Part shown: positions 7,082 through 62,705 of the stretch, in pieces | How positions within the stretch are numbered: the first letter of the stretch is position 1 | How the letters are laid out: each line of letters begins with the position of its first letter | Source: Bacteroidales bacterium | Lineage (GTDB): Bacteria > Bacteroidota > Bacteroidia > Bacteroidales > P3 | Length of the DNA stretch: 64,000 bases | Assembly (NCBI GenBank): GCA_045576855.1 | Contig: JAZNHG010000035.1 | Location: 1,855 to 65,854 of the forward strand | Reading direction: 5' to 3' | Made by a program: the position numbers and the translations under genes | The notes under the pieces: model-generated | What the model saw: the letters and a program-made list of their open reading frames with translations, nothing else | Told to the model about the DNA's origin: nothing | Database searches by the model: none

Positions 7082-10000
7082 TTAGCGCACTACTTCGATA
7101 ACGCCGTTACGTTTGACAAGTCCGTACTGTCCCTGTGCCATGAATCGATAATAGTAGGTACCATCAGGACTACGAGTATCCAACGGATTCCAGAACTGGT
7201 CTTCCCGGCGAATATTCTTCACGTGATAAACCAAAGCTCCCGTGCGGTCGTATATCCACAACTCGTTCATCGAATAGTTACCCATCTCCAACAGATTGAC
7301 CACACGCCAAGTATCATTGGTTCCATCGCCATTGGGGCTAACAAGATTGGGAAACTGCAAATAGTCATTGGTGATGGTAACCACGTGTTCAACAGAGTCG
7401 ATACACGTGTGGGTGAAGGTTTCGTATAGCCAGACATTGCGTAACGTGCTATCAATCCAGTCGACACTATCGACCCTGAAGGCTGGCACTGTGTGGGACC
7501 AGAAAGAGAGTAGACGCACCGTATATTCACCCGCCATATTGTCACCAGCTTCTCCCCATCGGTAGAGGGGCGCCACCTCGGAGGTAGTGTCGAACATTCC
7601 ACCCTCTTGCTGCTGGATACGCCACAGGTAGTCCACCGTGTCGGGCCACGTGAGATTGACAAACTGCGTTTCCGGATTGTGCATAGCCGGCACATCGGGG
7701 TCGGTATGGAAATCAGGTATAGCGCTTTGGAGGACGAACAAAGGCCAGCTGAGCGTATCATAGCATCCTATAATATCAGTGACGACCAACGACAAGTAAG
7801 CAGTCATAGCATCTTGGCCCTCCTCGAAACGGTACGAGAAGAAAGTATCGGCCGAAGCCACCACAGTGTCGCGCATGAAGAGTTGCCAGCTGTGTGCGAC
7901 GGCGCCCTCGATGCTGTCGCGTATCTCAAGCAGCGTGGGGTCGCAGCTCTTCAGCACACTGTCGGGCTCTTGCCAATCGGTGCTGTCGAAACGGTAGAGC
8001 ACACTGAGATGGTAATTGCTGTCGCGAGCAATCAAACTGACATGTACCAAGCTGTCACAATTTTGCCGGGTGGGCAGCAATTCATCAAATACGACGGGTC
8101 CACCATAGTCTACACCGCGGTAAAGATACGGATAGCCCGGACAGATATAGATGCTATCGTTCACCTCGCTAGAGTAGTTAACAGTCAACGCAAGACGCAA
8201 CGTACTGTCGCAGTATACGCTATTGAGGCCCACTGGAGCCGTAAGTGTATCGGAGGTATAATAGACCCCACCGTGCCAACTGATACTATCGCATACCACA
8301 GCCACGGTGTCGGCCAACGAGGTGGGACGCACGCTGAGTTGCAGTACATTGATGCTATCACACGTCTCATTCGGGATAGGAACGATATGATAATACTCAC
8401 CCGCATCGGTGTACGGCTGCCCGTAGTAGAGGTAGGACTGGTTGTCACAGATGGAAACCACGGTAGTATCACTCGGGGCCATGCCGGCTGGCAATGTGAG
8501 AGTAAGTGTCATGACGGCAGTGTCTTGACATTCATCAAGCGCAATGCCACTGATAAGACGCACGGTATAAGTGCCTGGATGCGTATATACGGCATAGCCG
8601 TGGTAGTTAACCGAAGTCGTCCCATTACCGTAATCCCAATATGCCGATTCGCAATGTTCGCCCGAAAGCGGCGTCACGCCGTCGTTGCTGACACCGCTGG
8701 TATTGGTAAACGAGACATAAAAACGGCAACTATCAACCGTCATACTCGTGTCGAACGACGCCATAGGATAGCGGGTGCCACCATAAGCGCTGATGACGAA
8801 ATGACAATTAGGATTGTCCAACTTGGACACATCGCAGTAGTAGGTGATATCCTGACTGGGAACCGTGATGCTTTGACTGGTGCTGACGGTAGCGCCAGAC
8901 TGCGAAGTGTACCAGCGATAGTGGAACCCTTCGGGGGCGCTCAATGTGTTGCTGTCCACATCGCCGCAGGAGACGGTATTCATATTCTTACGCATACACT
9001 CAAGCGTAAAGTAGGCATAGCCGTAATGCGAACCCTCATTGCAGTCATACGTGGTCAAGCGGAAATAGACCTGCTCGCCGGCATGGGCCGACAAATCGAC
9101 GCCCACAGCGGTCCAGTCTTTCCACAGCACGCCATCTTCGGCCGTGTTCCAACCCAGACTCTGGTCTGCAATAAAGTCGGCACTGGTGCAGGCCGAGTCG
9201 ATGATATTGTAGTTGGTATCCAGCAGTTCCATACGGAAACGGGGCTGGTCCGAAGGTGCATGCATGGGATCCTGTAGCACAGCGGCATAGCGCAGCAGCA
9301 ACAATTCGAAGCTGCTGGTATCCACAAAGAGGCTGTAGATGACACCCTCGGCCTCGGGAGTATAGGCATTGGTACTCCAGTTGCCCAAACGCACACTACT
9401 GGTATAGCCGACCGGAATAGTACGCAACAGATTGCCCGTTCGGGGGTCACGCTGAGCCGTGTCGTAACACACGGTGTGGCGGCTATCGGGATGCTGCGAC
9501 CCGTAGTTGACAGCACCGGCATGGGCATAGGGGTTACGGTAGCTGCCCGAGAAGAATACCGCCTGAGGCGAAGCCATGTCCGTGGGGTTCACACAGCCCG
9601 TGCCGGGCGCAGGCGTGACCACAGAAAGGCTGTCGCGGTAGTTGGTTGAGCAGTAACCCGTGTCCGTGGCACTGCATTCACTCTCGAAACGGAACGTATA
9701 ATAATGCAACGTTGTCAATGGTTCTATGTGGAGCGGCGGCTCGGCATTATTGAACACCTGACTGACCTGACCGTCGTCAATGACCGAAACGGTCACATTG
9801 GGATTGCCCACATGACTCCATGTGAGGTCTATACTATTGTTGGTCAAACGCTGCACGGTGAAGTCGAATGCAGCACATGAAGTAACATAGACATCATCGA
9901 CATAGATAGAGCGCCCACCGGCCTGACGGTTGCTGCGGGCTCTGAGTGCGATGAAGTGTGCATCGTCGGGAGCAGCGCTGAATTCCACCAGCCCGTGTTG

Positions 10001-13000
10001 CCATACACCGGTCTCAAGGGGCGCCAGCGTGCGGACAGGATGGAACGTAGACATATCGGCCGGATTGCTCATCACGCCAACCACCAGACGGTCGGAGAGG
10101 TCCTCCACCTGATACCACAGACTGAGGGCCACCTTCTGGATAGAGTCGATATTGATATCGGGCGTAATCATATACGAGTTGGAAGCAATCGGCATAACAA
10201 GGCTATTGGTATCGGAATGGGCCACTGCATTCGTAGCACCGATACCGACATTGCGGGCTGTCCAACTGCGCGGAATGGTGCCAGCCCTGACGGTGTCGAA
10301 GTCGATACACGAGGGCAATTCCAGCGGCGCGGCCAGCGTCGTGACCTGTTGTTTCGGCACACAGGTGTAGCTGTTGCTGTCGCAGCGGAAATAGAAATCA
10401 TAGCGCGTCTCGGGATCGAGGATGAGGATAAGCGGAACCGAGTCGACCCTCAGGATGGTATTGGCGCCACTGCCCTGTCCATTGTCCGAATAGCCGTATT
10501 CCACATAGAAGGGCGTATGCGGACCATCTATCTTCACCCTGTTCCACCGGCTCAGCGATGCCGTGGCTCCCAGTGCACCCGGGCAGCCATCGACATACAG
10601 ATAGCGCACATCGAACCAGCTGGCATTCTGGTTCCACAGATGGTGCAGCGCTATCCATCTACCGGTATCGGCATAGGACTGGAAGTCCACGAAAGCCTGC
10701 TGAAGTGTGTCTGTGATGGTATAGGTCAGCGTGTCGACGGGGGTAAACGAAGCCGTGTCGTAGGCATCGGTCATCACACCAACCACCAACGTATCGAATA
10801 CCGACCCCGCATCGTACCTTATCTTCAGTCCGGCATGGCGAATCGAATCCACATTGAAATCCTCCAATACCGCCCACGACGAACTGTTACCATAGAAACG
10901 TGTGGCACGCTGATTATAGTTATCACGCGTCACATATCCCGGTCCCGAATGTCCACGGGCGGCATAGTGGGCAAAGCCCAACGTGTTCCAGCTTGCGTCG
11001 TAGCACCACGGCACCCCGTTACGATAGGACAGATTATACTCCCGGTTGCCCTCACAGGTGTAACCCGCCGAATCGGTTTGCAATATAGTAGCATGACCAC
11101 TGGTCAGAATATTGGTGTCATGGATGAAGAACACCGTAGTGTCCACATAGAACATCGTATCTTCGCTGCTGTTCCACGGGTTGGAATAATGCAGCCAGTA
11201 GGGGCTCGCCGTACTGGTAGTAAACTTCAGCGTGCGTGCAGCAACCAGCGAAATCTTGGGCAGCGGGTAGCCATACACGTGCATATTGAACAATCTCATA
11301 TCGGCACGGGTACGGATGGCAATCCGTTTGTCCACATACTGCGACAGCTCGACATCGGCCTGCTGCCAGTCGTTGTTGTACGACGTCCACAGCGGCAGGA
11401 ACGACGACGTGTCGGTAGCATTGTCCATCACACCGATTTGCACTCCGCCATCGGTCCAGGTATAGAAGTAGCTGTGGAGCGACATTGCCGAGTCTACAGC
11501 CAGTTCGGGCAACACGGCGTACATCCACCTGTTGTTGCCCGGGTCCATACGCAGCGAAGGGCCCCACGTGTCGAGAGACACATTGTTGGATGCATTGTTC
11601 TTGATAAACGTCCATGTGGGGGGAACCGTGAGTGTACCATTGGACACATTGAAGTCCTCGCAGTAGGGCAGCGGGATGAGGCCGCCGGTATGAATCCTGA
11701 CCACCGGACGGCACCCCTCGGTCTGGTACAGGCAACGCCAGGTGAAATAGTAGGTCTTGTCCATCTGCAGACCTGTGACGCGGAAGGGGTTGGTCTGCAC
11801 ATACATCGTCCGTTCCTCGCCGCTGGCGCTGTCGGTGACCGTCAGATAATAACTCTGCATCTGGTCGGCATCCACCGAACAATCCACCACATTGCCGTCG
11901 ACAGCAAAATGCACATGCGGGTAGTAGCTGATCTCCAGCTCGTCCAGGTCTGTCACACCCGCACCGCCACGTATCAGCAGACGGAGCGTGTCAGCCGCCA
12001 GCGCAGGCAGACGCATCATATAATATTCCCACTCGGCCCCCACCACGAAGGTATCTATCGGCACCATAGCCTGGGCCTGGGTGGTGAAAGTCGCAGCCGG
12101 AACCGGTATGCTGTCGGCCGGCAGCCAGCCGAGCAGCAGGGTGTCGCCGGGCACACTGCTGCGGGCCCTGAACGAGAAGCTCTGCCGGTCGATACCAGTC
12201 ATCGGGTGCATAGCCACCGACCCGCGGGGCCGCAGCTGCAGATAGTCGCCCGTGGTGACCAGCGTGGTACTGTCGGCCGCCCAGTGGTAGGGCAGCTCAT
12301 AGGAGAGCACATCACTAAAATTGAAGCAATAGCCGTAGCCTCCGATGCCATAGCTCAGCGTGATGGCATATCCGGCAAAGGAGCGGCAGCCACCGGCGAG
12401 CGGACGCACATAGCAGTAATAGAGCGTGCCGGTATCCAGTCCTCCGAATCCTATACTGTGGATATCGGCGGCCTGCACGGTGTCGGCAAAGGTGTTGCCA
12501 CCGCCCACCAGCGTCACCTCGACGCTGTCGGCCTGGTGCAGCCAGCTCAGGTCGAAGGCCAGCGTGTCGAATCCGGTGTGGACAACCTGCAGCGTGCCGT
12601 AGGAGGCATGCTCTATCTGCATCTCGTCGATATAGCAGCTATAGTAGGAATACTCGTAGGGGTGCTGGTAGGCCAGCACCAGACGGCCGTCGAAGAGGGT
12701 GTCGCTCGGCCGCAGCTCGTAGCTGTAGTGGCGGCGCGCATTGTTGGCACTGATATGGATAGTGTCCAGCACGCGGAAATGCTCGGCGGGCGACTGGTAG
12801 TCGTCCGGCACTGTACCCACAATCAGTGTGGACTGCGGCGCCATGTCGTAGATGTAGAAGCTGAGCACCGAAGTGCTGTCCACCTCCACGTCGGGCAGCA
12901 TGGCCATAGAGTAGTAATCCCAAGAGAAGCCCCACGACGACATCTGGAGCGAGATACTCCCGTCGCTGCCGAACGACTGGCCCACAAAGCCGGGCAAATC

Positions 13001-15244
13001 GTTCAGCTGGCGCACACGCTGCCAGTCGCCTAACGTACTGCTCCAGGCGTTTCCGTTGAGGCTCTCCAGGTCCTCGCACCACGGCAGAGTGTAGTCCTGC
13101 GTGGCCGAACGGCGCTGGTAGCGCATGTCCTCGCACGGGGTCTGGCAGGGGCGGTAGACGAAGAGGTCGTATTCTGTCGAGGGCACGAGGCCGCCGATGG
13201 AAGCGTGGTCTACGTGGTAGAAGGTGTCCACCATGCCGGAGCCGAGGGCGAAGCCGTGCGGGCCATACTGCACCAGCACCGTGTCGTAGGGCTGAGCCCA
13301 ACTGAGCTCCATGTGGGTGCCCCGGCGGTGCAGCACGCGCGGCTCCTCGATGGCGCAGCGGCTACCCGTCACCGAATGGACACGTACATCGACATACCAA
13401 CCGGGATTGCCCAGGCGGATGGCGATATGCCGACCGGTGGAATTGGTGGGCACGGTGGCGGCAAATGTGTGTCGGCCGCCGTCGCTCCACGCCGTGTCGA
13501 GGGGCACGAAGGTGGTGATATCGTCGGGATGCACCATAGTGCCCAGTATCACCATCGCCCCATTGTTCTCGCCGCTGAAGGTCACCGACACCTGCGTGCC
13601 CGGCAGCCCCGTCAGGCGCTCGCTGGCCATGTAGGCGTCCACACCACTGCAGCCGTCGCGGAAATAGACGGCACGGTCCACCAGGTTGAAGTTGCCGCCA
13701 CAGTAAGCCTGCAGCACGTTGAAGGTCCACTCCGGTGGCAGTCCCTGACTCTGGCTGAAGTTGGAGCAGTAGCCGTCGGCGGCGGTCGGCATCACGGCAG
13801 TGCGGGCCGTCACACTGCGGGCAATGTTGAGCGACCCCTGGCAGGTGGGATAGACGGTGAAGATATAGTTTGTCTCGGCGTCGAGGCCCGTGATGTCGAG
13901 CGGCGACGTGACGTTGGAGAAGCTCAGCGAGTCGACCATAGCCCCCTCGCGGCGCACACCGACGTTGCATGTGGGATTGCCGTAGCTGCTCCAGGCCAGG
14001 GTGACCCGGTCGTACTCGATATGGTAGACCCGGAGCGAGTCTATACCGCAGTTCTCGATGCCCATATCGTCGATGTACAGGCGGCGTCCGATACCGTTCT
14101 GCTGCGACTGTTGCATGCGCAACGCCAGGCGGCGGCCGTTGGATGACGGCGTCCAGGTGAAGCTGTATTCCCGCCATTGGGTGGTGTTGTCCACGTAGAA
14201 AGACTGTATCGTGGTGAAGCCGTACTGGTTATAGTCGGAGCCCGCGCTGTCGCAGGTGCCCACCTGCACATAGGTGCTGCTGTGGCTGGCGCGCAGCTGG
14301 AGGCGCACCGTGTGGCTGCCCACACCCTGCAGCGGCGGGGTGGCCACCAGGCCGAAGTGGCCCGCGGCGTCGTTGTTGCCGCAGCTGAGCATCAGCGAAC
14401 GGCTGCCCGAACTGTGGTGGGTGGCCACCACCTGGGGCAGGCTCTCCTCGTCGTCGAAGTTGACCACCTGCAGCCAGCAGCTGGGGAAGGAGCCTTCAGC
14501 CAGTCCCTCGAAGCCCTCGCGGAAGGGCATATCGGCCGAGCCGCAGGCCGTGCGCACAAAGAGGCGGTCGGCGCAGCAGCGGTTGCCGGCCGCCGCAGTG
14601 GCCACCACCGAGATGTCGTAGCTGGTGGCCGGATTGAGCCCCGTCAGGGTATGGCTCGTGCCGGTGATGCCGCTGTAGGTCTGGTCGTTGCAGACCACCG
14701 TGAAGGGGCCCGCCGCATTGGTGGCCGTCCAGCTCAAGCTGATGCTGGTGGCGGTGACGGCGGTGGTGTCGAGGCCGGTCACAGGATTGGTGCATACATC
14801 CGAGACGCCGGAGACAGACCAGTTCAGCTCGAAGCCCGAGCTGACCACCGAGCCGTCGCTATGGAAGCTCACCAGCAGCTGGCCGCGGGTGGTGCTGACG
14901 CTGACGGTGCCGGTGCCGCCCGCCTGGCTGTAGTAGGTGGTCTGGTCGTCGTGGATGGTGAGCCAGTCGCAGCACGATTCGGTCTGGTAGCTGCCGCTGA
15001 GGGTGATGGTCAGGCCCGCCGATGCCTGGATGAGCACCGCGCCGTCGAAGCCGTTGGCATAGTCCGACAGGGGGCCGCCGTTGTCGTAGATGGTGCCCGA
15101 GCCCAGGGTGCAGGCATCCAGCACAATGGTGTCGTGGGCCAGCATATAGGTAACCGACTGGGCCCGGAGCGATGCCGGCAGCAGGGCCGGAACCAGGAGC
15201 AGGACCAGAAGAAGCAGGGTATGTTTTCGTTGTGTCATTGTCAT
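7082..15244 (-). CDS. giant (about 2720 aa) modular secreted surface protein with a T9SS type-B (gliding-motility CHU_C-like) C-terminal sorting domain
   Basis: The start is taken at MTMTQRKHTLLLLVLLLVPALLPASLRAQS (ATG 15244, ATGA overlap with the upstream regulator stop). There is a CUB-like N-terminal domain. Beta-sandwich (MAM / choice-of-anchor-like) modules alternate with FN3-like modules several times. A PKD-like block (YWDYGNG..HPGTYTVRL) lies at about nt 8530-8770. The C-terminus NLVSPNGDGTNDTW...GTYYYR lies at about nt 7085-7350. Confidence 0.85.
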   Translation of the reverse strand: MTMTQRKHTLLLLVLLLVPALLPASLRAQSVTYMLAHDTIVLDACTLGSGTIYDNGGPLSDYANGFDGAVLIQASAGLTITLSGSYQTESCCDWLTIHDDQTTYYSQAGGTGTVSVSTTRGQLLVSFHSDGSVVSSGFELNWSVSGVSDVCTNPVTGLDTTAVTATSISLSWTATNAAGPFTVVCNDQTYSGITGTSHTLTGLNPATSYDISVVATAAAGNRCCADRLFVRTACGSADMPFREGFEGLAEGSFPSCWLQVVNFDDEESLPQVVATHHSSGSRSLMLSCGNNDAAGHFGLVATPPLQGVGSHTVRLQLRASHSSTYVQVGTCDSAGSDYNQYGFTTIQSFYVDNTTQWREYSFTWTPSSNGRRLALRMQQSQQNGIGRRLYIDDMGIENCGIDSLRVYHIEYDRVTLAWSSYGNPTCNVGVRREGAMVDSLSFSNVTSPLDITGLDAETNYIFTVYPTCQGSLNIARSVTARTAVMPTAADGYCSNFSQSQGLPPEWTFNVLQAYCGGNFNLVDRAVYFRDGCSGVDAYMASERLTGLPGTQVSVTFSGENNGAMVILGTMVHPDDITTFVPLDTAWSDGGRHTFAATVPTNSTGRHIAIRLGNPGWYVDVRVHSVTGSRCAIEEPRVLHRRGTHMELSWAQPYDTVLVQYGPHGFALGSGMVDTFYHVDHASIGGLVPSTEYDLFVYRPCQTPCEDMRYQRRSATQDYTLPWCEDLESLNGNAWSSTLGDWQRVRQLNDLPGFVGQSFGSDGSISLQMSSWGFSWDYYSMAMLPDVEVDSTSVLSFYIYDMAPQSTLIVGTVPDDYQSPAEHFRVLDTIHISANNARRHYSYELRPSDTLFDGRLVLAYQHPYEYSYYSCYIDEMQIEHASYGTLQVVHTGFDTLAFDLSWLHQADSVEVTLVGGGNTFADTVQAADIHSIGFGGLDTGTLYYCYVRPLAGGCRSFAGYAITLSYGIGGYGYCFNFSDVLSYELPYHWAADSTTLVTTGDYLQLRPRGSVAMHPMTGIDRQSFSFRARSSVPGDTLLLGWLPADSIPVPAATFTTQAQAMVPIDTFVVGAEWEYYMMRLPALAADTLRLLIRGGAGVTDLDELEISYYPHVHFAVDGNVVDCSVDADQMQSYYLTVTDSASGEERTMYVQTNPFRVTGLQMDKTYYFTWRCLYQTEGCRPVVRIHTGGLIPLPYCEDFNVSNGTLTVPPTWTFIKNNASNNVSLDTWGPSLRMDPGNNRWMYAVLPELAVDSAMSLHSYFYTWTDGGVQIGVMDNATDTSSFLPLWTSYNNDWQQADVELSQYVDKRIAIRTRADMRLFNMHVYGYPLPKISLVAARTLKFTTSTASPYWLHYSNPWNSSEDTMFYVDTTVFFIHDTNILTSGHATILQTDSAGYTCEGNREYNLSYRNGVPWCYDASWNTLGFAHYAARGHSGPGYVTRDNYNQRATRFYGNSSSWAVLEDFNVDSIRHAGLKIRYDAGSVFDTLVVGVMTDAYDTASFTPVDTLTYTITDTLQQAFVDFQSYADTGRWIALHHLWNQNASWFDVRYLYVDGCPGALGATASLSRWNRVKIDGPHTPFYVEYGYSDNGQGSGANTILRVDSVPLILILDPETRYDFYFRCDSNSYTCVPKQQVTTLAAPLELPSCIDFDTVRAGTIPRSWTARNVGIGATNAVAHSDTNSLVMPIASNSYMITPDINIDSIQKVALSLWYQVEDLSDRLVVGVMSNPADMSTFHPVRTLAPLETGVWQHGLVEFSAAPDDAHFIALRARSNRQAGGRSIYVDDVYVTSCAAFDFTVQRLTNNSIDLTWSHVGNPNVTVSVIDDGQVSQVFNNAEPPLHIEPLTTLHYYTFRFESECSATDTGYCSTNYRDSLSVVTPAPGTGCVNPTDMASPQAVFFSGSYRNPYAHAGAVNYGSQHPDSRHTVCYDTAQRDPRTGNLLRTIPVGYTSSVRLGNWSTNAYTPEAEGVIYSLFVDTSSFELLLLRYAAVLQDPMHAPSDQPRFRMELLDTNYNIIDSACTSADFIADQSLGWNTAEDGVLWKDWTAVGVDLSAHAGEQVYFRLTTYDCNEGSHYGYAYFTLECMRKNMNTVSCGDVDSNTLSAPEGFHYRWYTSQSGATVSTSQSITVPSQDITYYCDVSKLDNPNCHFVISAYGGTRYPMASFDTSMTVDSCRFYVSFTNTSGVSNDGVTPLSGEHCESAYWDYGNGTTSVNYHGYAVYTHPGTYTVRLISGIALDECQDTAVMTLTLTLPAGMAPSDTTVVSICDNQSYLYYGQPYTDAGEYYHIVPIPNETCDSINVLQLSVRPTSLADTVAVVCDSISWHGGVYYTSDTLTAPVGLNSVYCDSTLRLALTVNYSSEVNDSIYICPGYPYLYRGVDYGGPVVFDELLPTRQNCDSLVHVSLIARDSNYHLSVLYRFDSTDWQEPDSVLKSCDPTLLEIRDSIEGAVAHSWQLFMRDTVVASADTFFSYRFEEGQDAMTAYLSLVVTDIIGCYDTLSWPLFVLQSAIPDFHTDPDVPAMHNPETQFVNLTWPDTVDYLWRIQQQEGGMFDTTSEVAPLYRWGEAGDNMAGEYTVRLLSFWSHTVPAFRVDSVDWIDSTLRNVWLYETFTHTCIDSVEHVVTITNDYLQFPNLVSPNGDGTNDTWRVVNLLEMGNYSMNELWIYDRTGALVYHVKNIRREDQFWNPLDTRSPDGTYYYRFMAQGQYGLVKRNGVIEVVR

Positions 15245-15978
15245 GCGGTTGGGGGATTGTATCGGTATCCGAAGTGAGTTTTGTTTACTATGCAGGCGCC
15301 TTGCGCACCCATTTTCTTGCGCAGGCGGGCAATATGCACGTCGACGGCCCGCTCGCCGACCAGGGCGTCGCCCGGCCACACGGCGGCCAGTATGTCGGCC
15401 CGCGAGAAGAAGCGGCCGGGATGCGAGGCCAGCAGGTCGAGGATGCACTGCTCGCGCAGGGTGAGCAGCGGCGACTCCGCCGGCTCGGACGCACGCGCAC
15501 CGCCGCAACGCCGCAGCACGGCACGCACCCGCGCCAGCACGGTGTCGAAGGCGAACGGCTTGGCGATATAGTCGTCGGCACCCGCGTCGAAGCCCTGCAG
15601 CTGGTGGTCGTGGCTGTCCAGGGCGGTGAGGAAGATGACGGGCGTCTCGTCGCCGCGCGACCGCAGCAGGCCGGCCATCTCGAAGCCCGACATGCGGTCC
15701 ATCATCACGTCGAGCAGTATGAGGTCGTATCGCTGGCTTTGCGCCCCGATTTTCTCCAGCGCCTCCTCGGCGCTGCCGGCCGTGTCTACCCGATAGCCCT
15801 CGCTCTCCAGGTTGAAGCGCAGTATTTCGCAGAGGTCCTCCTCGTCGTCGACGACCAGCAGCCGCTGGCAGCAAGCCGCAGCCGCGCGGACGGACGGGGC
15901 CGGCTGCGGGCTGACGTCCTGGGCTGTCGTGTGCGCCGCCGGACGCAGGGGGGCGGATGATGTTTCGTTCTTTGCCAT
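15241..15978 (-). CDS. OmpR/PhoB-family response regulator
   Basis: Start taken at MAKNETSS (ATG 15978). Receiver domain (LLVVDDEEDL, ILLDVMMDRMSG, DDYIAKPF) plus a winged-helix output domain (VDVHIARLRKKMG, GYRY). Confidence 0.85.
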   Translation of the reverse strand: MAKNETSSAPLRPAAHTTAQDVSPQPAPSVRAAAACCQRLLVVDDEEDLCEILRFNLESEGYRVDTAGSAEEALEKIGAQSQRYDLILLDVMMDRMSGFEMAGLLRSRGDETPVIFLTALDSHDHQLQGFDAGADDYIAKPFAFDTVLARVRAVLRRCGGARASEPAESPLLTLREQCILDLLASHPGRFFSRADILAAVWPGDALVGERAVDVHIARLRKKMGAQGACIVNKTHFGYRYNPPTA

Positions 15979-16071
15979 ATTTCTTTTCCCATGCCGCGAC
16001 ATACGCCCATGCGCCCGTATCATACACAATACCAACCTCATGGAACCTCGGTCCAGCGGCACTTAGAAATG

Positions 16072-16100: not shown

Positions 16101-16220
16101 GGTCTTAAAATAAAAAAAGCAGAAAAACTCCACCCCACAACCCGACGGCGGGGCACCATGCAGCAGTTTTCGACCCGCCGTCGCCGTCCGAAACAGGCAT
16201 CCGAAATGTTAAAATGCAAG

Positions 16221-16268
16221 GATGGTGGTAGGATGGTGGTAGGTTGATGGTAGGATGGTGGTAGGATG
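16221..16268. repeat. 11-bp tandem array GATGGTGGTAG, about 4.4 units
   Basis: Read directly: gatggtggtag gatggtggtag gttgatggtag gatggtggtag gatga. Confidence 0.9.
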
Positions 16269-16283
16269 ATACCCTTCGGGTAG

Positions 16284-16322
16284 GTGTTCAGTGCTCAGTG
16301 TTCAGTGTTCGGCATTCAGTGG
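16284..16322. repeat. 7-bp tandem array GTGTTCA, about 5 units
   Basis: gtgttca gtgctca gtgttca gtgttcg gcattca gtgg. Confidence 0.9.
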
Positions 16323-16357
16323 AAAAGAGGTTGCTGTACGTATCCTACGGTCTTGAT

Positions 16358-16401
16358 ACTCAGTGTTTGACACTGAATGCTTAACACTTGGCACTGAATA
16401 A
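16358..16401. repeat. 7/14-bp periodic segment rich in CACTGAA, the inverted partner of the GTGTTCA array
   Basis: actcagt gtttgac actgaat gcttaac acttggc actgaat. Positions 16371-16380 (cactgaatgc) are the exact complement of 16312-16321 (gcattcagtg). Confidence 0.8.
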
Positions 16402-16417
16402 AGCTCGTTTCCGACTC

Positions 16418-16452
16418 TCAATTCTCAATTTTCAATTCTCAATTTTCAATTC
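16418..16452. repeat. 7-bp tandem array alternating TCAATTC/TCAATTT, 5 units
   Basis: tcaattc tcaattt tcaattc tcaattt tcaattc. Confidence 0.9.
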
Positions 16453-16622
16453 AACCCCTCTCAGCATGTTTTCGAATTTTGCAAGTAAAATATTGTTAAA
16501 CTTTCTTAAATCACATCATAAAAGACTTGTAATTACATCTACATCAGCACGTAAGCAGGTTTTACCGAGAGACAAGAAAGACACCCCCCAAACCGACGGC
16601 TTGGCGAAGGAAGAGAATAAAT

Positions 16623-16653
16623 TTTGCGGAATCAAAAAAAAAGTGTATTTTTG
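16623..16653 (+). promoter_or_regulatory. candidate promoter of the OMP gene (-33 TTTG, 19-bp spacer, -7 TATTTTTG)
   Basis: attTTTGcggaatcaaaaaaaaagtgTATTTTTGcac. The -7 box ends 25 nt before ATG 16679. Confidence 0.5.
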
Positions 16654-16678: not shown

Positions 16679-17470
16679 ATGAAAAAAACAGCATTTCTCA
16701 TTGCCGCAGTGGCACTTATGACGGCTGCCAACGCGCAAGTGGTAATCGGCATTCAGGGCGGCTACCACTGGCAGAAGAACACCCAATCGTATGATACAGA
16801 GAATACGCGTCTGGCCACCAACTGGCTGGGCGGACTGCAGCTGGGCTACAATATCACGCCCGAATTGTATGTCGGTGTGAGCGGCAACTACCAAGACTTT
16901 GCTACGGACACCTTCTACCTGCACAGCATCATCGACTTCGAGGGCATGATGCGCGAGGTCGACAACCGCGAGCTGAAGGGTCACCACACGGGCTGGACCG
17001 TGGGCCCGCAGGTGAAATGGGAATTTCTGAAATACGGCAACATGCACTTCCACCTGCTGCTGCAGGGCACCGTGTCGTCCACGGGCTACACCACCCTGGA
17101 CGAGACCTTCGACACCCCCTTCCGCAACAACGGCGAGCATGTGACCAAACCGGTGCTGGCCGACAGCCTGCACACCTTCACCTGGGGCGTCAGCCTGCGG
17201 CCCACGCTGACCTATGCCTTCTCGCGCCACCTGAGCGCCGAGCTGAGCCTCGACTTCCTGAGCATCGGCTACATCGACCACCGCGCCACCGACGACCACA
17301 TGCAGCCCAAGTATGACAACGAAGGCCGCCTGGAATACCTCGACGGCGACATAGTCTACACCACCACCACCCACCGCACCCGCACCATCTATGCCGGCCT
17401 GAACACGCTGATGGAGACCTTGCGCTGGGAGAGCCCCCTGCTGCGTCTGGGCTTCAACTGGACCTTTTAG
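16679..17470 (+). CDS. outer-membrane beta-barrel protein (porin/OmpW-like family)
   Basis: Start taken at MKKTAFLIAAVALMTAANAQ (signal peptide). The protein has alternating hydrophobic strand patterns and a C-terminal LRLGFNWTF. The upstream part of ORF 16388-17470 runs through repeat DNA. Confidence 0.55.
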   Translation: MKKTAFLIAAVALMTAANAQVVIGIQGGYHWQKNTQSYDTENTRLATNWLGGLQLGYNITPELYVGVSGNYQDFATDTFYLHSIIDFEGMMREVDNRELKGHHTGWTVGPQVKWEFLKYGNMHFHLLLQGTVSSTGYTTLDETFDTPFRNNGEHVTKPVLADSLHTFTWGVSLRPTLTYAFSRHLSAELSLDFLSIGYIDHRATDDHMQPKYDNEGRLEYLDGDIVYTTTTHRTRTIYAGLNTLMETLRWESPLLRLGFNWTF

Positions 17471-17620
17471 GGAGTGGAGAGTGGAGAGTGGAGAGTGGAG
17501 AGTGGAGAGTGGAGAGTGGAGAGCGGAGAGCGGAGAGTGGAGAGTGGAGAGTGGAGAGTGGAGAGTGGAGAGCGGAGAGTGGAGAGTGGAGAGTGGAGAG
17601 TGGAGAGTGGAGAGCGGAGA
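17471..17620. repeat. 7-bp tandem array GGAGAGT, 21 units with 4 GGAGAGC variants
   Basis: Units in register from 17474 to 17620. The array begins 1 nt after the OMP stop codon (TAG 17468-17470). Confidence 0.95.
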
Positions 17621-17650
17621 GCAGTTGCCGTACCCGGATACTGCTCACTG

Positions 17651-17720
17651 CCAACTATTAACTGCCAACTGCCAACTGTCAACTGCCAACTGCCAACTGC
17701 CAACTGCCAACTGCCAACTG
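17651..17720. repeat. 7-bp tandem array CCAACTG (CAACTGC), 10 units
   Basis: ccaacta ttaactg ccaactg ccaactg tcaactg ccaactg x5. The array ends 18 nt before ATG 17739. Confidence 0.95.
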
Positions 17721-17738
17721 AACATTAAACCATAAACC

Positions 17739-19328
17739 ATGTACACCAAAGAACAAGGACTGTATATAGCCCACTGCGACGAGGGAGCCCTCGCACTGGT
17801 GGGCCGCATGGCCAACCGCCACGGACTGATAGCCGGCGCCACCGGCACCGGCAAGACCGTCACCCTGCAGGTGATGGCCGAGACCTTCTGCCAAGCCGGC
17901 GTGCCCTGTTTCATGGCCGACATGAAGGGCGACCTCAGCGGCATCAGCCAGGCCGGACAGATGAGCTCGTTCATTGAGAAACGCAAGGACGCCTTCGGGG
18001 TCCCCAACCCCGAATTCCAGCCCTGTCCCGTGCGCTTCTACGACGTGTTGGGCGAACAGGGCCACCCCATCCGCGCCACCGTGAGCCAGATGGGTCCGCA
18101 GCTGCTCAGCCGCCTGCTGGGCCTGAACGAGACGCAGGACGGCGTGCTGAACATCGTGTTCCGCATCGCCGACGAGAACGGCCTGCTGCTGCTCGACATG
18201 AAGGACCTGCGCGCCATGCTCGATTTCGTGGCCCGCCACGCCAAAGAATACACCACCCAGTACGGCAACATCAGCACCGCCACCGTGGGTGCCATACAGC
18301 GCTCGCTGCTGCAACTCGACGCCCAAGGGGCCGACCGCTTCTTCGGCGAGCCCTCGTTCGACATATACGACCTGCTGCAGACCGATGGCGGCAAGGGCAT
18401 CATGAATGTGCTGGCGGCCGACAAGCTGATGCTGCAGCCCAAACTCTACAGCACCTTCCTGCTCTGGCTCCTCTCGGAACTCTACTCCACCCTGCCCGAG
18501 GTGGGCGACCAGGAGCTGCCGCGTCTGGTCTTCTTCTTCGACGAAGCCCACATGCTCTTCGAAGACACCTCCAAGGCCCTCGTCGACAAGATAGAGCAGG
18601 TGATACGCCTCATCCGCTCCAAAGGCGTGGGTATCTACTTCGTCACCCAGAGCCCGACCGACATACCGGAGAACATACTGGGCCAGCTGGGCAACCGCGT
18701 GCAGCATGCCCTGCGCGCCTATACCCCCAAGGACCAGCGCGCCGTGCGCACCGCCGCCGACACCTTCCGCCCCAATCCGAAATTCAAGACCGACGAGGCC
18801 ATCATGAACCTCGAGACCGGCGAGGCCCTGGTGAGCCTGCTCGACGAGAAAGGCGCCCCCGGCATGGTGCAGCGCGCCAAGATTCTCTTTCCCCTGAGCC
18901 AGATTGGCGCCATCACCGACAGCCAGCGCGCCGACATCATACGCGGCAGCCGCCTGTACGGCAAATACGACAAGATGGTGGATCGCGAGAGCGCCTTCGA
19001 GGTGCTGCTCCGGCAAGCCGAAGCCGCCGAAGCCGAAGAGGCCGAGCAAGCCGTGGTCGAGCAGCCGGAAGCCCCGGTAGCCACCGCCGACAAGCAGCAG
19101 CCCGCCAGAGAGAAAAAGAAGAGCGGTCTGGCCAGCAAGATACTGAAGTCGGTGCTCACCGCCGCCACCGCTACCCTGGCCACCGCCGCCGGTACCGCCG
19201 TCAGCAATGCCGTCAGCGGCAAGAAGACCAAGAGCAAGACCTCCGTCGGCCAGAAGATAGTCAAGAACACCACCAGCAGCGTGACCCGCACCCTGACGCG
19301 CGACATACTGGGCAACCTGCTGAAATAA
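17739..19328 (+). CDS. HerA-like ATPase, DUF853 (YjgR) family
   Basis: 529 aa. Walker A GATGTGKT, Walker [10 protein letters not shown], and a low-complexity Lys/Ala/Thr-rich C-terminal tail typical of DUF853 proteins. Confidence 0.8.
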
Positions 19329-27271: not shown

Positions 27272-27410
27272 GCCCCAGCGGCCGACACCATCCGCCATTC
27301 GCGCCGCCTACACCCCCACCCCGCCCTGCATACCCCGAGCCGACCGACAGCCATCGCCGTCCCACCGGTTCAACATCCACCAGTCAAACAGCCTCCCGAA
27401 ATGTTAAATA

Positions 27411-27465
27411 GGTAGGATGGTGGTAGGATGGTGGTAGGTTGATGGTACGTTGGTGGTAGGATGAC
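27411..27465. repeat. 11-bp tandem array GGTAGGATGGT, 5 units
   Basis: ggtaggatggt ggtaggatggt ggtaggttgat ggtacgttggt ggtaggatgac. Confidence 0.9.
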
Positions 27466-27503
27466 CCTAATTAGGGCGGAGGGTAGAAGGCGGAGGTTGG
27501 AGC

Positions 27504-27622
27504 GATGAATGATGAATGATAAATGATGAATATCAACTGACTACCAACTGTCAACTGTCAACTGCCAACTGCCAACTCTCAACTCTCCATTCTCAATTCT
27601 CAATTCTCAATTTTCAATTCCC
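27504..27622. repeat. continuous 7-bp register of 17 units whose sequence drifts along the array
   Basis: gatgaat gatgaat gataaat gatgaat atcaact gactacc aactgtc aactgtc aactgcc aactgcc aactctc aactctc cattctc aattctc aattctc aattttc aattccc. Confidence 0.9.
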
Positions 27623-27825
27623 ATCCTCTCAGTGTGCATCTGGATTTTGCAAGTGCAAAAATGATAAAAAATGTTAAACCTCCTCTATGCACCAGTCGGC
27701 ACGGGGTAGGGCAGACGTGGTGGACAGCGCCGTCCCCACGCCCCAAGCGGCCGTGTCCGGCCGGCAGCAAAGGCGAAAAAAGACGAAGTACCGGAAACAT
27801 GATGCGTTTGCCCGGCCTGTGGCTT

Positions 27826-28045
27826 GATTGCGGCGCGGCATATCTGGTGCATGTTATTGAAAGGAAGGCCCTACGGGCCAGATTGCGGCGCGGCGTACGG
27901 GGTGCTTGCTATTGAGAGAAAGGCCCTACGGGCCAGAATGCGGCGTGGCGTACGGGGTGCTTGCTATTGAGAGAAAGGCCCTACGGGCCAGAATGCGGCG
28001 CGGCATATCTGGTGCATGTTATTGAAAGAAAGGCCCTACGGGCCA
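27826..28045 (+). repeat. four contiguous 55-bp direct repeats in the order A-B-B'-A', each ending in the hairpin GGCCC-TAC-GGGCC
   Basis: Units 27826-27880, 27881-27935, 27936-27990 and 27991-28045. Units 1 and 4 are near-identical (..CATATCTGGTGCATGTTATTGAAAG..). Units 2 and 3 are near-identical (..CGTACGGGGTGCTTGCTATTGAGAG..). Confidence 0.9.
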
Positions 28046-32853: not shown

Positions 32854-32887
32854 CTTACCAACACCTACCGTGGTAGGTGTTGGTAAG
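32854..32887. repeat. perfect 16-bp inverted repeat (hairpin) 68 nt after the kinase stop
   Basis: cttaccaacacctacc-gt-ggtaggtgttggtaag. The right arm runs straight into the 11-mer array. There is no U-tract. Confidence 0.85.
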
Positions 32888-32934
32888 GAGTTGGTAAGGA
32901 GTTGGTAAGGAGTTGGCAAGGAGATGGTAGGTTG
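32869..32934. repeat. 11-bp tandem array TTGGTAAGGAG, about 6 units including diverged end units
   Basis: gtggtaggtgt ttggtaaggag ttggtaaggag ttggtaaggag ttggcaaggag atggtaggttg. Confidence 0.9.
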
Positions 32935-41254: not shown

Positions 41255-41395
41255 TTCTTGCAAAAAATATTTCAAATTTTCGCACCGGCAGCCAAACCCG
41301 CACAATCGCCATTTTCCCCCAATTGCCCCTGCCTGTTGTGACGCGAAAAAACGCCCTTGTAACCCACTGAACCTCAAGCCCTCAACCTACCATCT
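41255..41395 (-). repeat. dispersed element, copy 2 (inverted homologue of 32924-33050)
   Basis: See the copy 1 alignment. This copy lies between the divergent TBDR and OMP genes. Confidence 0.8.
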
Positions 41396-41440
41396 ACTTA
41401 CCAACGACTTACCAACGACTTACCAACGACTTACCAACAC
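41385..41440. repeat. 11-bp tandem array ACTTACCAACG, about 4-5 units (complement TTGGTAAGT..)
   Basis: acttaccaacg acttaccaacg acttaccaacg acttaccaaca, preceded by aacctaccatct. A partner aaggtgtt follows 17 nt later, allowing a hairpin with aacacctt. Confidence 0.9.
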
Positions 41441-41623
41441 CTTCTACAGTAGTAGTTGATAAGGTGTTAGCACGTATTTCGTCACCCGATGGAATGCCCT
41501 CTTCCTGACGGTGGCGCCGGGCACTCCACCCCCGGTGCGGAGGTGGACACAAACTTTTTTTCCACCGCGGGTGTAAGATTCGGCCACCTTCGTGCGACTT
41601 ATATACGACGAATCAAACCGACG

Positions 41624-44555: not shown

Positions 44556-44596
44556 TTTAACTTTTAACTTTTAACTTTTAACTCTTAACTTTCAAT
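44555..44596. repeat. 7-bp tandem array TTTTAAC (GTTAAAA on the coding strand), about 6 units, filling the blaI-blaR1 junction
   Basis: ttttaac x4, then tcttaac and tttcaat. It spans from the last base of the blaR1-like ATG through the 29-nt spacer into the last blaI-like codons. Confidence 0.9.
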
Positions 44597-44950: not shown

Positions 44951-45228
44951 AATTATATCGTATTGTCATTAATTATATTTCTAGTTACATAACGGCATAA
45001 TGCATTACGTATTGTATGATAGTGATATTTTTTTCAAAAAAAAATTTGTATTGGGCGGAGTTTTGAAGCAAGAAAAAAAACATCGTGCACGACATAACCG
45101 CCTTACTGACATGGGGTCGCACCATCGAGAGAAAGGTGTCGAATGGGGCAAAAATACAGGCAAATGTGGGTCATAACCCCATAAACATCAGTATTTCTAC
45201 ACAATTCATCCGACAAAAAACCGACTGC

Positions 45229-45280
45229 AGTCGGACTTCAGTCGGACATGAGTCGGACATGAGTCGGACATGAATCGGTG
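45229..45280. repeat. 11-bp tandem array AGTCGGACATG, about 4.7 units
   Basis: agtcggacttc agtcggacatg agtcggacatg agtcggacatg aatcggtg, preceded by the palindrome ccgactgcagtcgg. Confidence 0.9.
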
Positions 45281-49832: not shown

Positions 49833-49870
49833 AACAAATTCTTAATTCTTGATTCTAAACTCTTAATTAA

Positions 49871-50315: not shown

Positions 50316-50388
<73 letters not shown>

Positions 50389-50405
50389 GGCTTTTGCGGT
50401 TTGTG

Positions 50406-50479
50406 TCGGGGTGAGAAGACTCGAACTTCCGGCCTCCACGTCCCGAACGTGGCGCGCTAGCCAACTGCGCTACACCCCG
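50406..50479 (-). tRNA. tRNA-Pro (anticodon CGG)
   Basis: Hand fold: CGGGGTG/CACCCCG acceptor, CCACG-TTCGGGA-CGTGG anticodon arm. Confidence 0.9.
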
Positions 50480-50487
50480 CGATGTTG

Positions 50488-50560
50488 TGTCCTGGCAGGG
50501 ATTCGAACCCTGGACCCATTGATTAAGAGTCAATTGCTCTACCAGCTGAGCTACCAAGAC
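50488..50560 (-). tRNA. tRNA-Lys (anticodon CTT)
   Basis: Hand fold: GTCTTGG/CCAGGAC acceptor, ATTGA-CTCTTAA-TCAAT anticodon arm. Confidence 0.9.
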
Positions 50561-50672
50561 ATTTATTCTCTTTCGCTTGTGTTTTACGACAACCTCATCG
50601 GCCTTTCTTCGAAGGCGTATTGAACATGGACTTTGACATTGTCGTGCATTATTTCAAGTTACTCTTTCTTCT

Positions 50673-50748
<76 letters not shown>

Positions 50749-50761
50749 ATCATGTCAATCG

Positions 50762-50844
50762 TACTCCGGGTGGGACTTGAACCCACACGCCCTTGCGGGC
50801 AAGGGATTTTAAGTCCCTCGTGTCTACCATTCCACCACCAGAGC
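50762..50844 (-). tRNA. tRNA-Leu (anticodon TAA), long variable arm
   Basis: Hand fold: AGGGA-CTTAAAA-TCCCT anticodon arm, variable arm TGCCCGCAAGGGCG. The acceptor needs G-U pairs, so the ends are within about 1 nt. Confidence 0.85.
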
Positions 50845-50866
50845 CTCTCCTCTGATTTTGGAGTCC

Positions 50867-50942
<76 letters not shown>

Positions 50943-62189: not shown

Positions 62190-62199
62190 ACACATGCAA

Positions 62200-62232
62200 G
62201 TGTTCAGTGTTTAGTGTTCAGTGTTCAGTTTA
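62200..62232 (+). repeat. 7-bp tandem array GTGTTCA, 4 units plus a partial one
   Basis: gtgttca gtgttta gtgttca gtgttca gttta. It starts 11 nt after the mutA stop and ends 19 nt before ATG 62251. Confidence 0.95.
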
Positions 62233-62250
62233 GCATAGCGTAAAACAATC

Positions 62251-62622
62251 ATGGGAGAAAGCGTATTAAGCGAAAAGAGCTTTGATTTTGCTTTATCAAT
62301 CGTGAACACCTATAAGACATTACGCGAGCAGGGGGAATATGTATTGTCGAAACAGATGCTACGTTCGGGGACAAGTATAGGCGCAAACGTAGCTGAAGCG
62401 AATATGGCACAGACCCTTGCTGATTTCTCTTCCAAAATGTATATTGCCCTGAAAGAAGCAAACGAAACGTCATACTGGCTAAAACTACTGGGAAGGGCCG
62501 GATATTTGAACCAAGCCGAATCCAACGAACTGACAGAAAAATGTCATGAGTTATTGAGAATGCTAATAGCAACCACAAAGAAAACTGCACCGCGTCAGCA
62601 AAAACCAAACACTGAACACTAA
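62251..62622 (+). CDS. four-helix-bundle protein of the 23S rRNA intervening-sequence protein / Avd-like family (TIGR02436/PF05635-like)
   Basis: 123 aa. S..FA..I......L.......L..Q.LRSGTSIGANV.EA.......DF..K..IALKEA.ET.YWL.LL is the hallmark pattern of this family. Confidence 0.8.
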   Translation: MGESVLSEKSFDFALSIVNTYKTLREQGEYVLSKQMLRSGTSIGANVAEANMAQTLADFSSKMYIALKEANETSYWLKLLGRAGYLNQAESNELTEKCHELLRMLIATTKKTAPRQQKPNTEH

Positions 62623-62705
62623 ACACTGAACACTGAACACTGAACACTGAACACTGAACACTGAACACTAAACACTAAACACTGAACACTAAACACTGAA
62701 CACTA
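62608..62705 (+). repeat. 7-bp tandem array AACACTG/AACACTA, 14 units, the reverse complement of the upstream GTGTTCA array
   Basis: Units in register from 62608 to 62705. The array starts inside the last 4 codons of the four-helix-bundle ORF and ends 2 nt before the TTG start of the next gene. Confidence 0.95.

Follow-up and report, generated by a model that had tools for sequence, protein, structure and literature searches.

Tandem heptanucleotides located between genes have been described for several groups of bacteria. Heptamers are the commonest long simple-sequence repeats (LSSR), and polymerase slippage has been proposed as their origin (Mrazek 2007, as summarised in PMC4679880). Repeats of the unit TAACTGA, placed in intergenic regions just upstream of start codons, have been found in Beggiatoaceae, cyanobacteria and five Bacteroidetes, and S1, Csp and CsrA have been put forward as the candidates for binding them (MacGregor 2015, PMC4679880). 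The GGGNATC heptamers of Xanthomonas and Nostoc lie between same-strand genes, not more than 50 bp from stops or starts, comprise 2-26 units and are mostly transcribed (Rehm 2015, PMC4692102). A preprint on Nostoc reports that heptamer repeats affect expression, with no partner identified. In this work we have analyzed a stretch of 64,000 nt from an uncultured rumen Bacteroidales bacterium (GenBank assembly GCA_045576855.1, contig JAZNHG010000035.1, positions 1,855 to 65,854 of the forward strand), hereafter referred to as the window, and in it the spacer between a gene for an outer-membrane beta-barrel protein (OMP) and a gene for a HerA_C/DUF853 P-loop ATPase. We show that hypervariable heptamer repeats flank a conserved stem-loop in this dispensable operon-junction spacer and that the lineage is rich in such arrays. 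Nothing specific on heptamer repeats in Prevotella or Bacteroidales was present in the literature searched.

The spacer extends over 268 nt, from the OMP stop codon TAG (17468-17470) to the ATG of the HerA_C/DUF853 gene at 17739. An earlier note, made from the letters of the window alone, had described it as filled by two arrays and a linker with a hairpin, which is borne out by the coordinates and by Tandem Repeats Finder (TRF). Array 1 (17471-17622, + strand) adjoins the OMP stop directly and begins with a GGAGT partial unit (17471-17475), followed in 17476-17622 by 21 full units, 16 of them GGAGAGT and five GGAGAGC (full units 7, 8, 14, 20 and 21). The total of 21 units given in the earlier note is right, and its GGAGAGC positions 8, 9, 15 and 21 hold if the partial is numbered as unit 1; its number of such variants has to be raised from four to five, because the last GGAGAGC had been assigned to the linker. 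TRF reports array 1 at 17472-17621 (period 7, 21.4 copies, 96% matches, score 272), and (GGAGAGT)x3, of which the window has 10 occurrences, did not appear in any of 100 dinucleotide shuffles, which excludes chance. The linker is 24 nt long, and an inverted repeat straddles it and the end of array 1: GAGCAGT (17619-17625) and ACTGCTC (17640-17646) are exact reverse complements, as had been noticed earlier, and their 7-bp stem (17619-17646) together with flanking pairs makes up the core stem-loop (17614-17651, + strand). Array 2 (17647-17723, + strand) consists of 10 ACTGCCA-type units (17647-17716), with ACTATTA and ACTGTCA among the variants, and a degenerate terminal ACTGAAC. TRF places it at 17647-17720 (period 7, 10.6 copies, 88% matches, score 120), in agreement with the earlier reading of ten units that end 18 nt 5′ of the HerA_C ATG. 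The heptamer GCAGTTG (17621-17627) is indeed the reverse complement of the unit CAACTGC. The remaining 18 nt (17721-17738, + strand) form a non-repetitive, A-rich leader, AACATTAAACCATAAACC, directly 5′ of the HerA_C ATG; upstream adenines are described in PMC13000457 as a start signal in Bacteroidia.

Other identities considered for the spacer did not fit. The 7-nt units adjoin one another directly and lack intervening spacers, unlike clustered regularly interspaced short palindromic repeats (CRISPR), in which 23-50-nt repeats alternate with unique spacers. The open reading frames (ORFs) spanning the arrays, including a repeat-peptide ORF at 17474-17728, match no Pfam family, and most of the differences in length between the array-bearing alleles (268, 170, 163 and 149 nt) are not multiples of 3; a coding repeat was rejected on these grounds, and the view expressed earlier that these ORFs are artefacts is upheld. 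A phase-variation repeat was set aside as well, the arrays being placed between a stop codon and the leader of the next gene in a spacer devoid of promoter boxes. The hairpin is not an intrinsic terminator: the scan of 17471-17738 gave no G+C-rich stem with a U-tract.

Contigs of the same species were reached via the cluster of OMP homologs (99% amino acid identity); at the nucleotide level they are 99.2-99.6% identical to the window in the OMP gene and 97.6-98.1% in the HerA gene. While the window allele has 21 units in array 1 and 10 in array 2, the corresponding numbers are 8 and 9 in L082/L083 (spacer of 170 nt), 11 and 6 in L089 (170 nt), 10 and 6 in L088/L090 (163 nt) and 8 and 5 in L084/L085 (149 nt). 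Array-bearing alleles have in common the two ends of array 1 (the initial partial unit and the final GGAGAGC), the hairpin, units 1 and 2 of array 2, and the leader; the leader is identical throughout, and the core hairpin shows a single loop substitution, in L084/L085. The interiors of the arrays vary both in the number and in the type of units, with GAATAGT, GAAGAGT and GGAAAGT mixed into array 1. By the change to GAATAGT or GAAGAGT, GGA is lost in 3-7 of its 8-11 units (about a third to half) in the alleles other than that of the window. Two short-read contigs break inside array 1, which would be explained if short reads cannot be assembled across it.

Four contigs of the same species (L081 and L091-L093) carry no arrays at all. 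Their OMP gene ends with TGA instead of TAG, and the spacer of 137 nt is wholly different in sequence; in nucleotide identity to the window L081 equals the array-bearing contigs, and L091-L093 are 96.5% identical. The array-free spacer (L081:1263-1399, L091:1195-1331 and L093) contains a 16-bp stem, TTAAGCTGCAAGTTTC/GAAACTTGCAGCTTAA. Between differing contigs 15 of the 137 positions are changed, and the stems of L081 and L091 differ at two pairs by compensatory A-T to G-C double changes and at another by a G-U wobble. In the sister species, whose OMP is 75-77% identical at the amino acid level, the junction is either 3 nt long, TAGGCCATG (L094/L095), or 102 nt with two small hairpins (L099). 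Among more distant relatives, the junction measures 6 nt in L004 and 41-50 nt in L001 and L002, where 2-3 unrelated heptamers are present, and the spacer of L003, about 170 nt long, contains a 12-bp hairpin. To judge from these sequences, the OMP-HerA_C pair is an operon junction whose filler changes from lineage to lineage, which indicates that the arrays are dispensable and fast-evolving. The earlier note had named, as an observation that would refute its own interpretation, relatives with the same locus lacking the arrays and showing no effect on expression; as regards presence and absence of the arrays, such relatives are thus documented within the species as well as in the sister species.

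In RNA folding, the extended core (17600-17670) reaches -28.5 kcal/mol (z = -3.6), and the complete window spacer is no more stable than its shuffles (z = +0.6), its predicted fold being either that of a plain repeat or that of a long, imperfect hairpin. In the window allele, with GGAGAGT expanded and uniform, the two arrays would match as arms at only about 4/7 positions. The arrays of the short allele L082 are predicted to pair, with imperfections, on either side of the core, which yields a long imperfect hairpin (z = -2.7); the array 2 unit ACTATTA matches the reverse complement of the array 1 unit GAATAGT at 6/7 positions. Even when up to 3 mismatches were tolerated, the window gave no second copy of the linker hairpin, and a metagenome scan with the same hairpin returned one contig, derived from the OMP-HerA_C locus itself and identical in record to L090.

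The spacer is most likely located within a transcribed operon. The TAnnTTTG motif TATTTTTG, a Bacteroidetes-type -7 promoter box, is present at 16646-16653 (+ strand), upstream of the OMP gene (16679-17470, + strand; Pfam OMP_b-brl, 263 amino acids from ATGAAAAAAACAGC). The OMP gene probably starts at this ATG (16679) and not at TTG 16388, where the mechanically called ORF begins, because the homologs are 263 amino acids long and align at that start. The HerA_C/DUF853 gene occupies 17739-19328 (+ strand; 529 amino acids, Pfam HerA_C, E = 1.8e-207), and M16 peptidase genes follow 17 nt after it. An exact-protein look-up of the window HerA_C and of the protein P0126 gave no record. No TAnnTTTG box was detected on the + strand between 16646 and 27137, which agrees with the earlier statement that none follows the arrays; the scan revealed no sigma-70-like + strand site in or beside the spacer either, and no hairpin followed by a T-run in 17471-17738, where the hairpin is followed by ACTGCCAACT. 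Since the spacer has neither promoter box nor terminator in these scans and the junction measures 3-6 nt in relatives, the OMP and HerA_C genes are likely to be co-transcribed, with the arrays contained in the mRNA; the co-transcription suggested in the earlier note is plausible on the same grounds.

Arrays of this kind abound in the window and in its relatives. TRF gave 11 rows of period 7 and eight of period 11 in the window, as compared with 0 and 0-2, respectively, in 20 dinucleotide shuffles. All ten non-redundant window arrays of period 7 or 14 lie outside long open frames, and several of them are situated in operon junctions. Seven was also the commonest array period in 80 related loci (700 kb) from metagenome-assembled rumen Bacteroidales genomes whose HerA_C is at most 87% identical to that of the window. 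The sequences of the units are diverse: the commonest 4-mers, TGAA, TCAA and AGAG, are present in 20-27% of units each, and a shared core, including the ACTG/CAGT found in TAACTGA and in the units of short tandemly repeated repetitive (STRR) sequences, was not enriched among the window units. One array, (GTTAAAA)5 at 44556-44592 on the minus strand, fills the junction between genes for a BlaI-type repressor and a BlaR1/TonB_C protein and abuts the BlaR1 ATG, and (AAGAATT)n at 49837-49868 lies about 5 nt upstream of a minus-strand ATG.

Several additional observations concern the same repeats. With the BlaI-BlaR1 array, the number of classical two-gene operons that contain a heptamer array rises to two. 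The window also has two copies (16200-16520 and 27398-27690) of a composite non-coding element, about 300 nt in length, in the order CCGAAATGTTAAA, (GGTAGGATGGT)n 11-mers, a small hairpin, heptamer arrays ending with (TCTCAAT)n, and CCTCTCAG...GATTTTGCAAGT...GTTAAAC; its heptamers are GTGTTCA, TCTCAAT, GATGAAT, CAACTCT and ACTGCCA. Contig L081 of the same species shares the first copy, with differences at the level of units. Further arrays of period 11, GGTAAGGAGTT, TACCAACGACT and AGTCGGACATG, with 4.5-5.5 copies, were seen at 32860-32929, 41388-41470 and 45220-45278; 11-mer arrays usually adjoin a small hairpin with an arm resembling the unit, e.g. CCGACTGCAGTCGG followed by (AGTCGGACATG)4. 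In three relatives the HerA_C gene itself contains an insertion of some 20-25 codons, in frame and close to residues 85-110 (L050:4290-4360, L055:4300-4360 and L067:4300-4345). These insertions contain arrays of CAATGGT, TCCACCT and CAACTCT heptamers, which implies that heptamer arrays also enter a variable coding loop with the frame kept.

We consider it fairly probable that the spacer represents a small intercistronic stem-loop, both flanks of which have been expanded into slippage-generated heptanucleotide simple-sequence repeats, that it is probably co-transcribed with the neighbouring genes, and that its effect, if any, is structural. The arrays would be created and changed by slipped-strand mispairing during replication, perhaps after being seeded from the arms of the stem-loop, and would most likely be transcribed inside the OMP-HerA_C mRNA. 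Any effect would then be exerted via the length of the spacer and via the stem-loop or the imperfect long hairpin, with no sequence-specific partner involved. The 21 GGAG motifs may be tolerated because ribosomes of Bacteroidia, according to PMC7797042 and PMC9976891, do not read Shine-Dalgarno sequences.

The spacer fits intergenic heptanucleotide repeats of the LSSR or STRR-like type in its excess of tandem units, its non-coding position near gene ends, the polymorphism of its unit number and the abundance of such arrays in the lineage. Like the TAACTGA repeats, the OMP-HerA_C arrays consist of head-to-tail 7-nt units in non-coding DNA, near a start or just after a stop. In that system, too, several heptamer arrays stand side by side in one Bacteroidetes spacer, arrays reach 43 copies, the closest relatives share the neighbourhood with shorter repeat-free spacers, and the function is as unproven as it is here (PMC4679880). 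The differences are that the units in our spacer are GGAGAGT and CAACTGC, that no unit dominates in the window, that the arrays flank a conserved hairpin and that the rumen Bacteroidales host belongs to a lineage outside that study. With the STRR, GGGNATC and LSSR repeats the window arrays share their over-representation as heptamers in non-coding DNA between same-strand genes, the location near gene ends, the variable number of units and slippage as the proposed origin. The GGG/GGGG tracts of those G-rich units form G-quadruplexes, and four units are preferred, whereas GGAGAGT has only GG doublets and shows no four-unit preference. The arrays are thus a local case of a known bacterial repeat type and not a conserved RNA gene, and a dedicated sponge RNA finds no support; what they add to the known kind is the central hairpin and an unusually clear allele series.

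A functional analogy, and no more than that, may be drawn with repetitive extragenic palindromic (REP) sequences and bacterial interspersed mosaic elements (BIME). These are intercistronic palindromes of enterobacteria, e.g. between malE and malF, which share one conserved sequence and are mobilised by REP-associated tyrosine transposases (RAYT). There, and presumably in our spacer too, a stable stem-loop occupies a transcribed junction leading from an abundant envelope gene to a lower-expressed one, and by this analogy the spacer could uncouple the two cistrons and protect or process the upstream OMP message. REP sequences form a dispersed family moved by RAYT transposases, whereas the hairpin described here is single-copy in the window and flanked by tandem arrays.

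Stems formed by the arrays themselves have been encountered elsewhere in the lineage. In several relatives near-perfect hairpins of 26-34 bp, the arms of which are inverted heptamer arrays, are situated immediately 3′ of stop codons and lack a U-tract: L027:5190-5310 (-62.7 kcal/mol, z = -11), L056:4505-4600 (z = -10), and L054:5570-5670 and L057:3145-3260 (z about -5.6 for both). The window contains a related arrangement at 62199-62704, between the genes for methylmalonyl-CoA mutase and LptF/G. A 23S_rRNA_IVP gene (62251-62622; PF05635, E = 1.7e-29, a four-helix-bundle protein) is bracketed there by (AGTGTTC)4 and (GAACACT)14, which would enclose the gene completely in a stem of about 31 bp (z = -5.1). 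Among the related loci collected for comparison, a query for other IVP genes returned just that of the window; in the further loci L104, L106, L109-L111 and L116, from species in which the IVP protein is only 67-74% identical, the gene order and the units of the arrays are kept, with 2-9 copies. Intervening sequences of 23S rRNA can carry an IVP ORF inside a long stem of flanking inverted repeats, and the window locus resembles them in that a PF05635 gene lies inside a long inverted-repeat stem. It is unlike them in being located in an mRNA operon junction and in having heptamer arrays as stem arms, and the OMP-HerA_C arrays, unlike IVP-type intervening sequences, enclose no gene. It is conceivable, if rather doubtful, that rumen Bacteroidales use inverted heptamer-array stems as a general, evolvable signal of RNA processing or stability at operon junctions, in the manner of the rRNA intervening-sequence stems, and that the OMP-HerA spacer is a member of this class whose slipping arms tune the ratio of the cistrons between strains.

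This bears on the alternative to which we give most weight after the slippage interpretation, although we still judge it unlikely: that the arrays are the diverged arms of an inverted-array stem which is cleaved by an RNase III-like enzyme or blocks exonucleases, so that the length of the arms sets the OMP:HerA ratio and the copy number is an adaptive tuning device. The perfect 26-34-bp stems right after stops in L027, L056, L054 and L057 and the conservation, at 67-74% protein identity, of the array units round the IVP gene, which give a stem of about 31 bp in the window, argue for it. So do the compensatory changes that keep the 16-bp stem of the array-free allele, and the near-complementarity of ACTATTA and GAATAGT (6/7) with the z of -2.7 for the L082 spacer. 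The window allele speaks against it with arms that pair at 4/7 positions and are very unequal (21 and 10 units), and with a spacer as a whole at z = +0.6; moreover, the sister species manage with junctions of 3-6 nt. The absence of arrays from the orthologous loci of close relatives also speaks against a cis-acting translational signal, as proposed for the TAACTGA repeats of Beggiatoaceae, on whose unstructured repeats S1, Csp or a similar protein, or the ribosome, would load 5′ of the downstream start. The geometry is suggestive, as window arrays often end 0-21 nt before a start (17720 for the ATG at 17739, 44556 at the BlaR1 ATG, and 49837-49868), the TAACTGA repeats of Beggiatoaceae are arranged in the same way (MacGregor 2015, PMC4679880), and (GGAGAGU)n and (CAACUGC)n have little self-structure. 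Against it stand the units, which vary between loci and share no motif, and the A-rich leader, identical in all array-bearing alleles, that already separates array 2 from the ATG; we hold this explanation to be improbable.

We attach similarly little probability to an inserted mobile or recombining element, such as a cassette resembling a miniature inverted-repeat transposable element (MITE) or a REP sequence, with the array-bearing and array-free alleles as alternative insertions at a hotspot junction. The presence in one species of two unrelated spacers, with the stops TAG and TGA, between near-identical flanks speaks for it, as do the different filler of the junction in each related lineage and the two copies in the window of the composite element of about 300 nt, with its 11-mer and heptamer arrays. 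The linker hairpin is single-copy in the 64 kb, though, neither terminal inverted repeats nor target duplications nor a transposase gene came to light, and the arrays differ from one another by entire units, which is what slippage would give. The least probable of the alternatives, and one we regard as very remote, is that proposed in the earlier note, a sponge of the CsrB/RsmZ type in which the 21 GGA/GGAG motifs titrate an RNA-binding protein. The spacer does present 21 GGAG motifs, one every 7 nt, in a stretch that has little structure and is probably transcribed, and many repeated GGA motifs in one RNA are indeed the feature it shares with CsrB/RsmZ. CsrB-type RNAs carry their GGA motifs in hairpin loops, and in the OMP-HerA_C spacer the motifs form a plain repeat. 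Nor is the spacer a stand-alone gene: it is confined to an operon junction in which the scans found no promoter or terminator of its own. The array is not conserved, being absent from L081, L091-L093 and the sister species, and 3-7 of 8-11 units in the other alleles are without GGA. Rfam searches of the window, at the gathering score and at E <= 10, returned only tRNAs and two chance hits, and many nearby arrays have unrelated units. To our knowledge no partner protein of the CsrB/RsmZ type is known in Bacteroidota; CsrA-like proteins are listed among the heptamer-repeat candidates in MacGregor 2015 (PMC4679880). A variant in which Shine-Dalgarno-competent ribosomes lacking bS21 are titrated would draw on the statement in PMC9976891 that bS21-free Bacteroidia ribosomes gain Shine-Dalgarno recognition, and it shares the remoteness of the parent proposal.

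The interpretation of the spacer as a stem-loop flanked by slippage products, which we prefer, has several points against it. Co-transcription and any effect on expression are inferred from sequence features. The alleles used for comparison are short-read metagenome assemblies, in which arrays can be collapsed or mis-resolved, so the exact unit counts may be off, while the polymorphism itself stands. Conservation of the hairpin, of the array edges and of units 1 and 2 in array 2 leaves room for what may be a functional core. A palindrome can also stay complementary through templated repair, with no selection at the RNA level. Finally, some heptamer-array stems in the lineage are under selection, to judge by the array units kept at the IVP locus at 67-74% protein identity, and neutrality therefore cannot be assumed at the OMP-HerA_C junction.

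The junction provides a natural allele series, with either a 137-nt hairpin spacer or array alleles of 149-268 nt in one species and junctions of 3-6 nt in the sister species. This makes it testable whether intergenic heptamer repeats, which have been without a proven role after decades, affect mRNA, and it extends the phenomenon to uncultured rumen Bacteroidales. For annotators, the repeat-peptide ORFs are a warning as artefacts, and contigs tend to break at the arrays; the spacer may also serve as a hypervariable marker for strain tracking. If the arrays are merely tolerated products of slippage, the finding is an ordinary one.

A few features elsewhere in the window are added for completeness. 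A tandem repeat of a 55-nt unit (27829-28045; 3.9 copies, 88% matches), with the small hairpin GGCCCTACGGGCC in each unit, lies downstream of a tRNA gene and of the second composite element. Seven tRNA genes are clustered within about 630 nt on the minus strand (50316-50942). Upstream of the OMP gene, the minus strand contains a giant ORF (7082-16027) of 2981 amino acids with fn3 domains and a CHU_C type IX secretion signal. In the same-species contigs a response-regulator gene (253 amino acids) has been called between the giant ORF and the OMP gene, and the 5′ part of the giant ORF may thus be two genes read as one.

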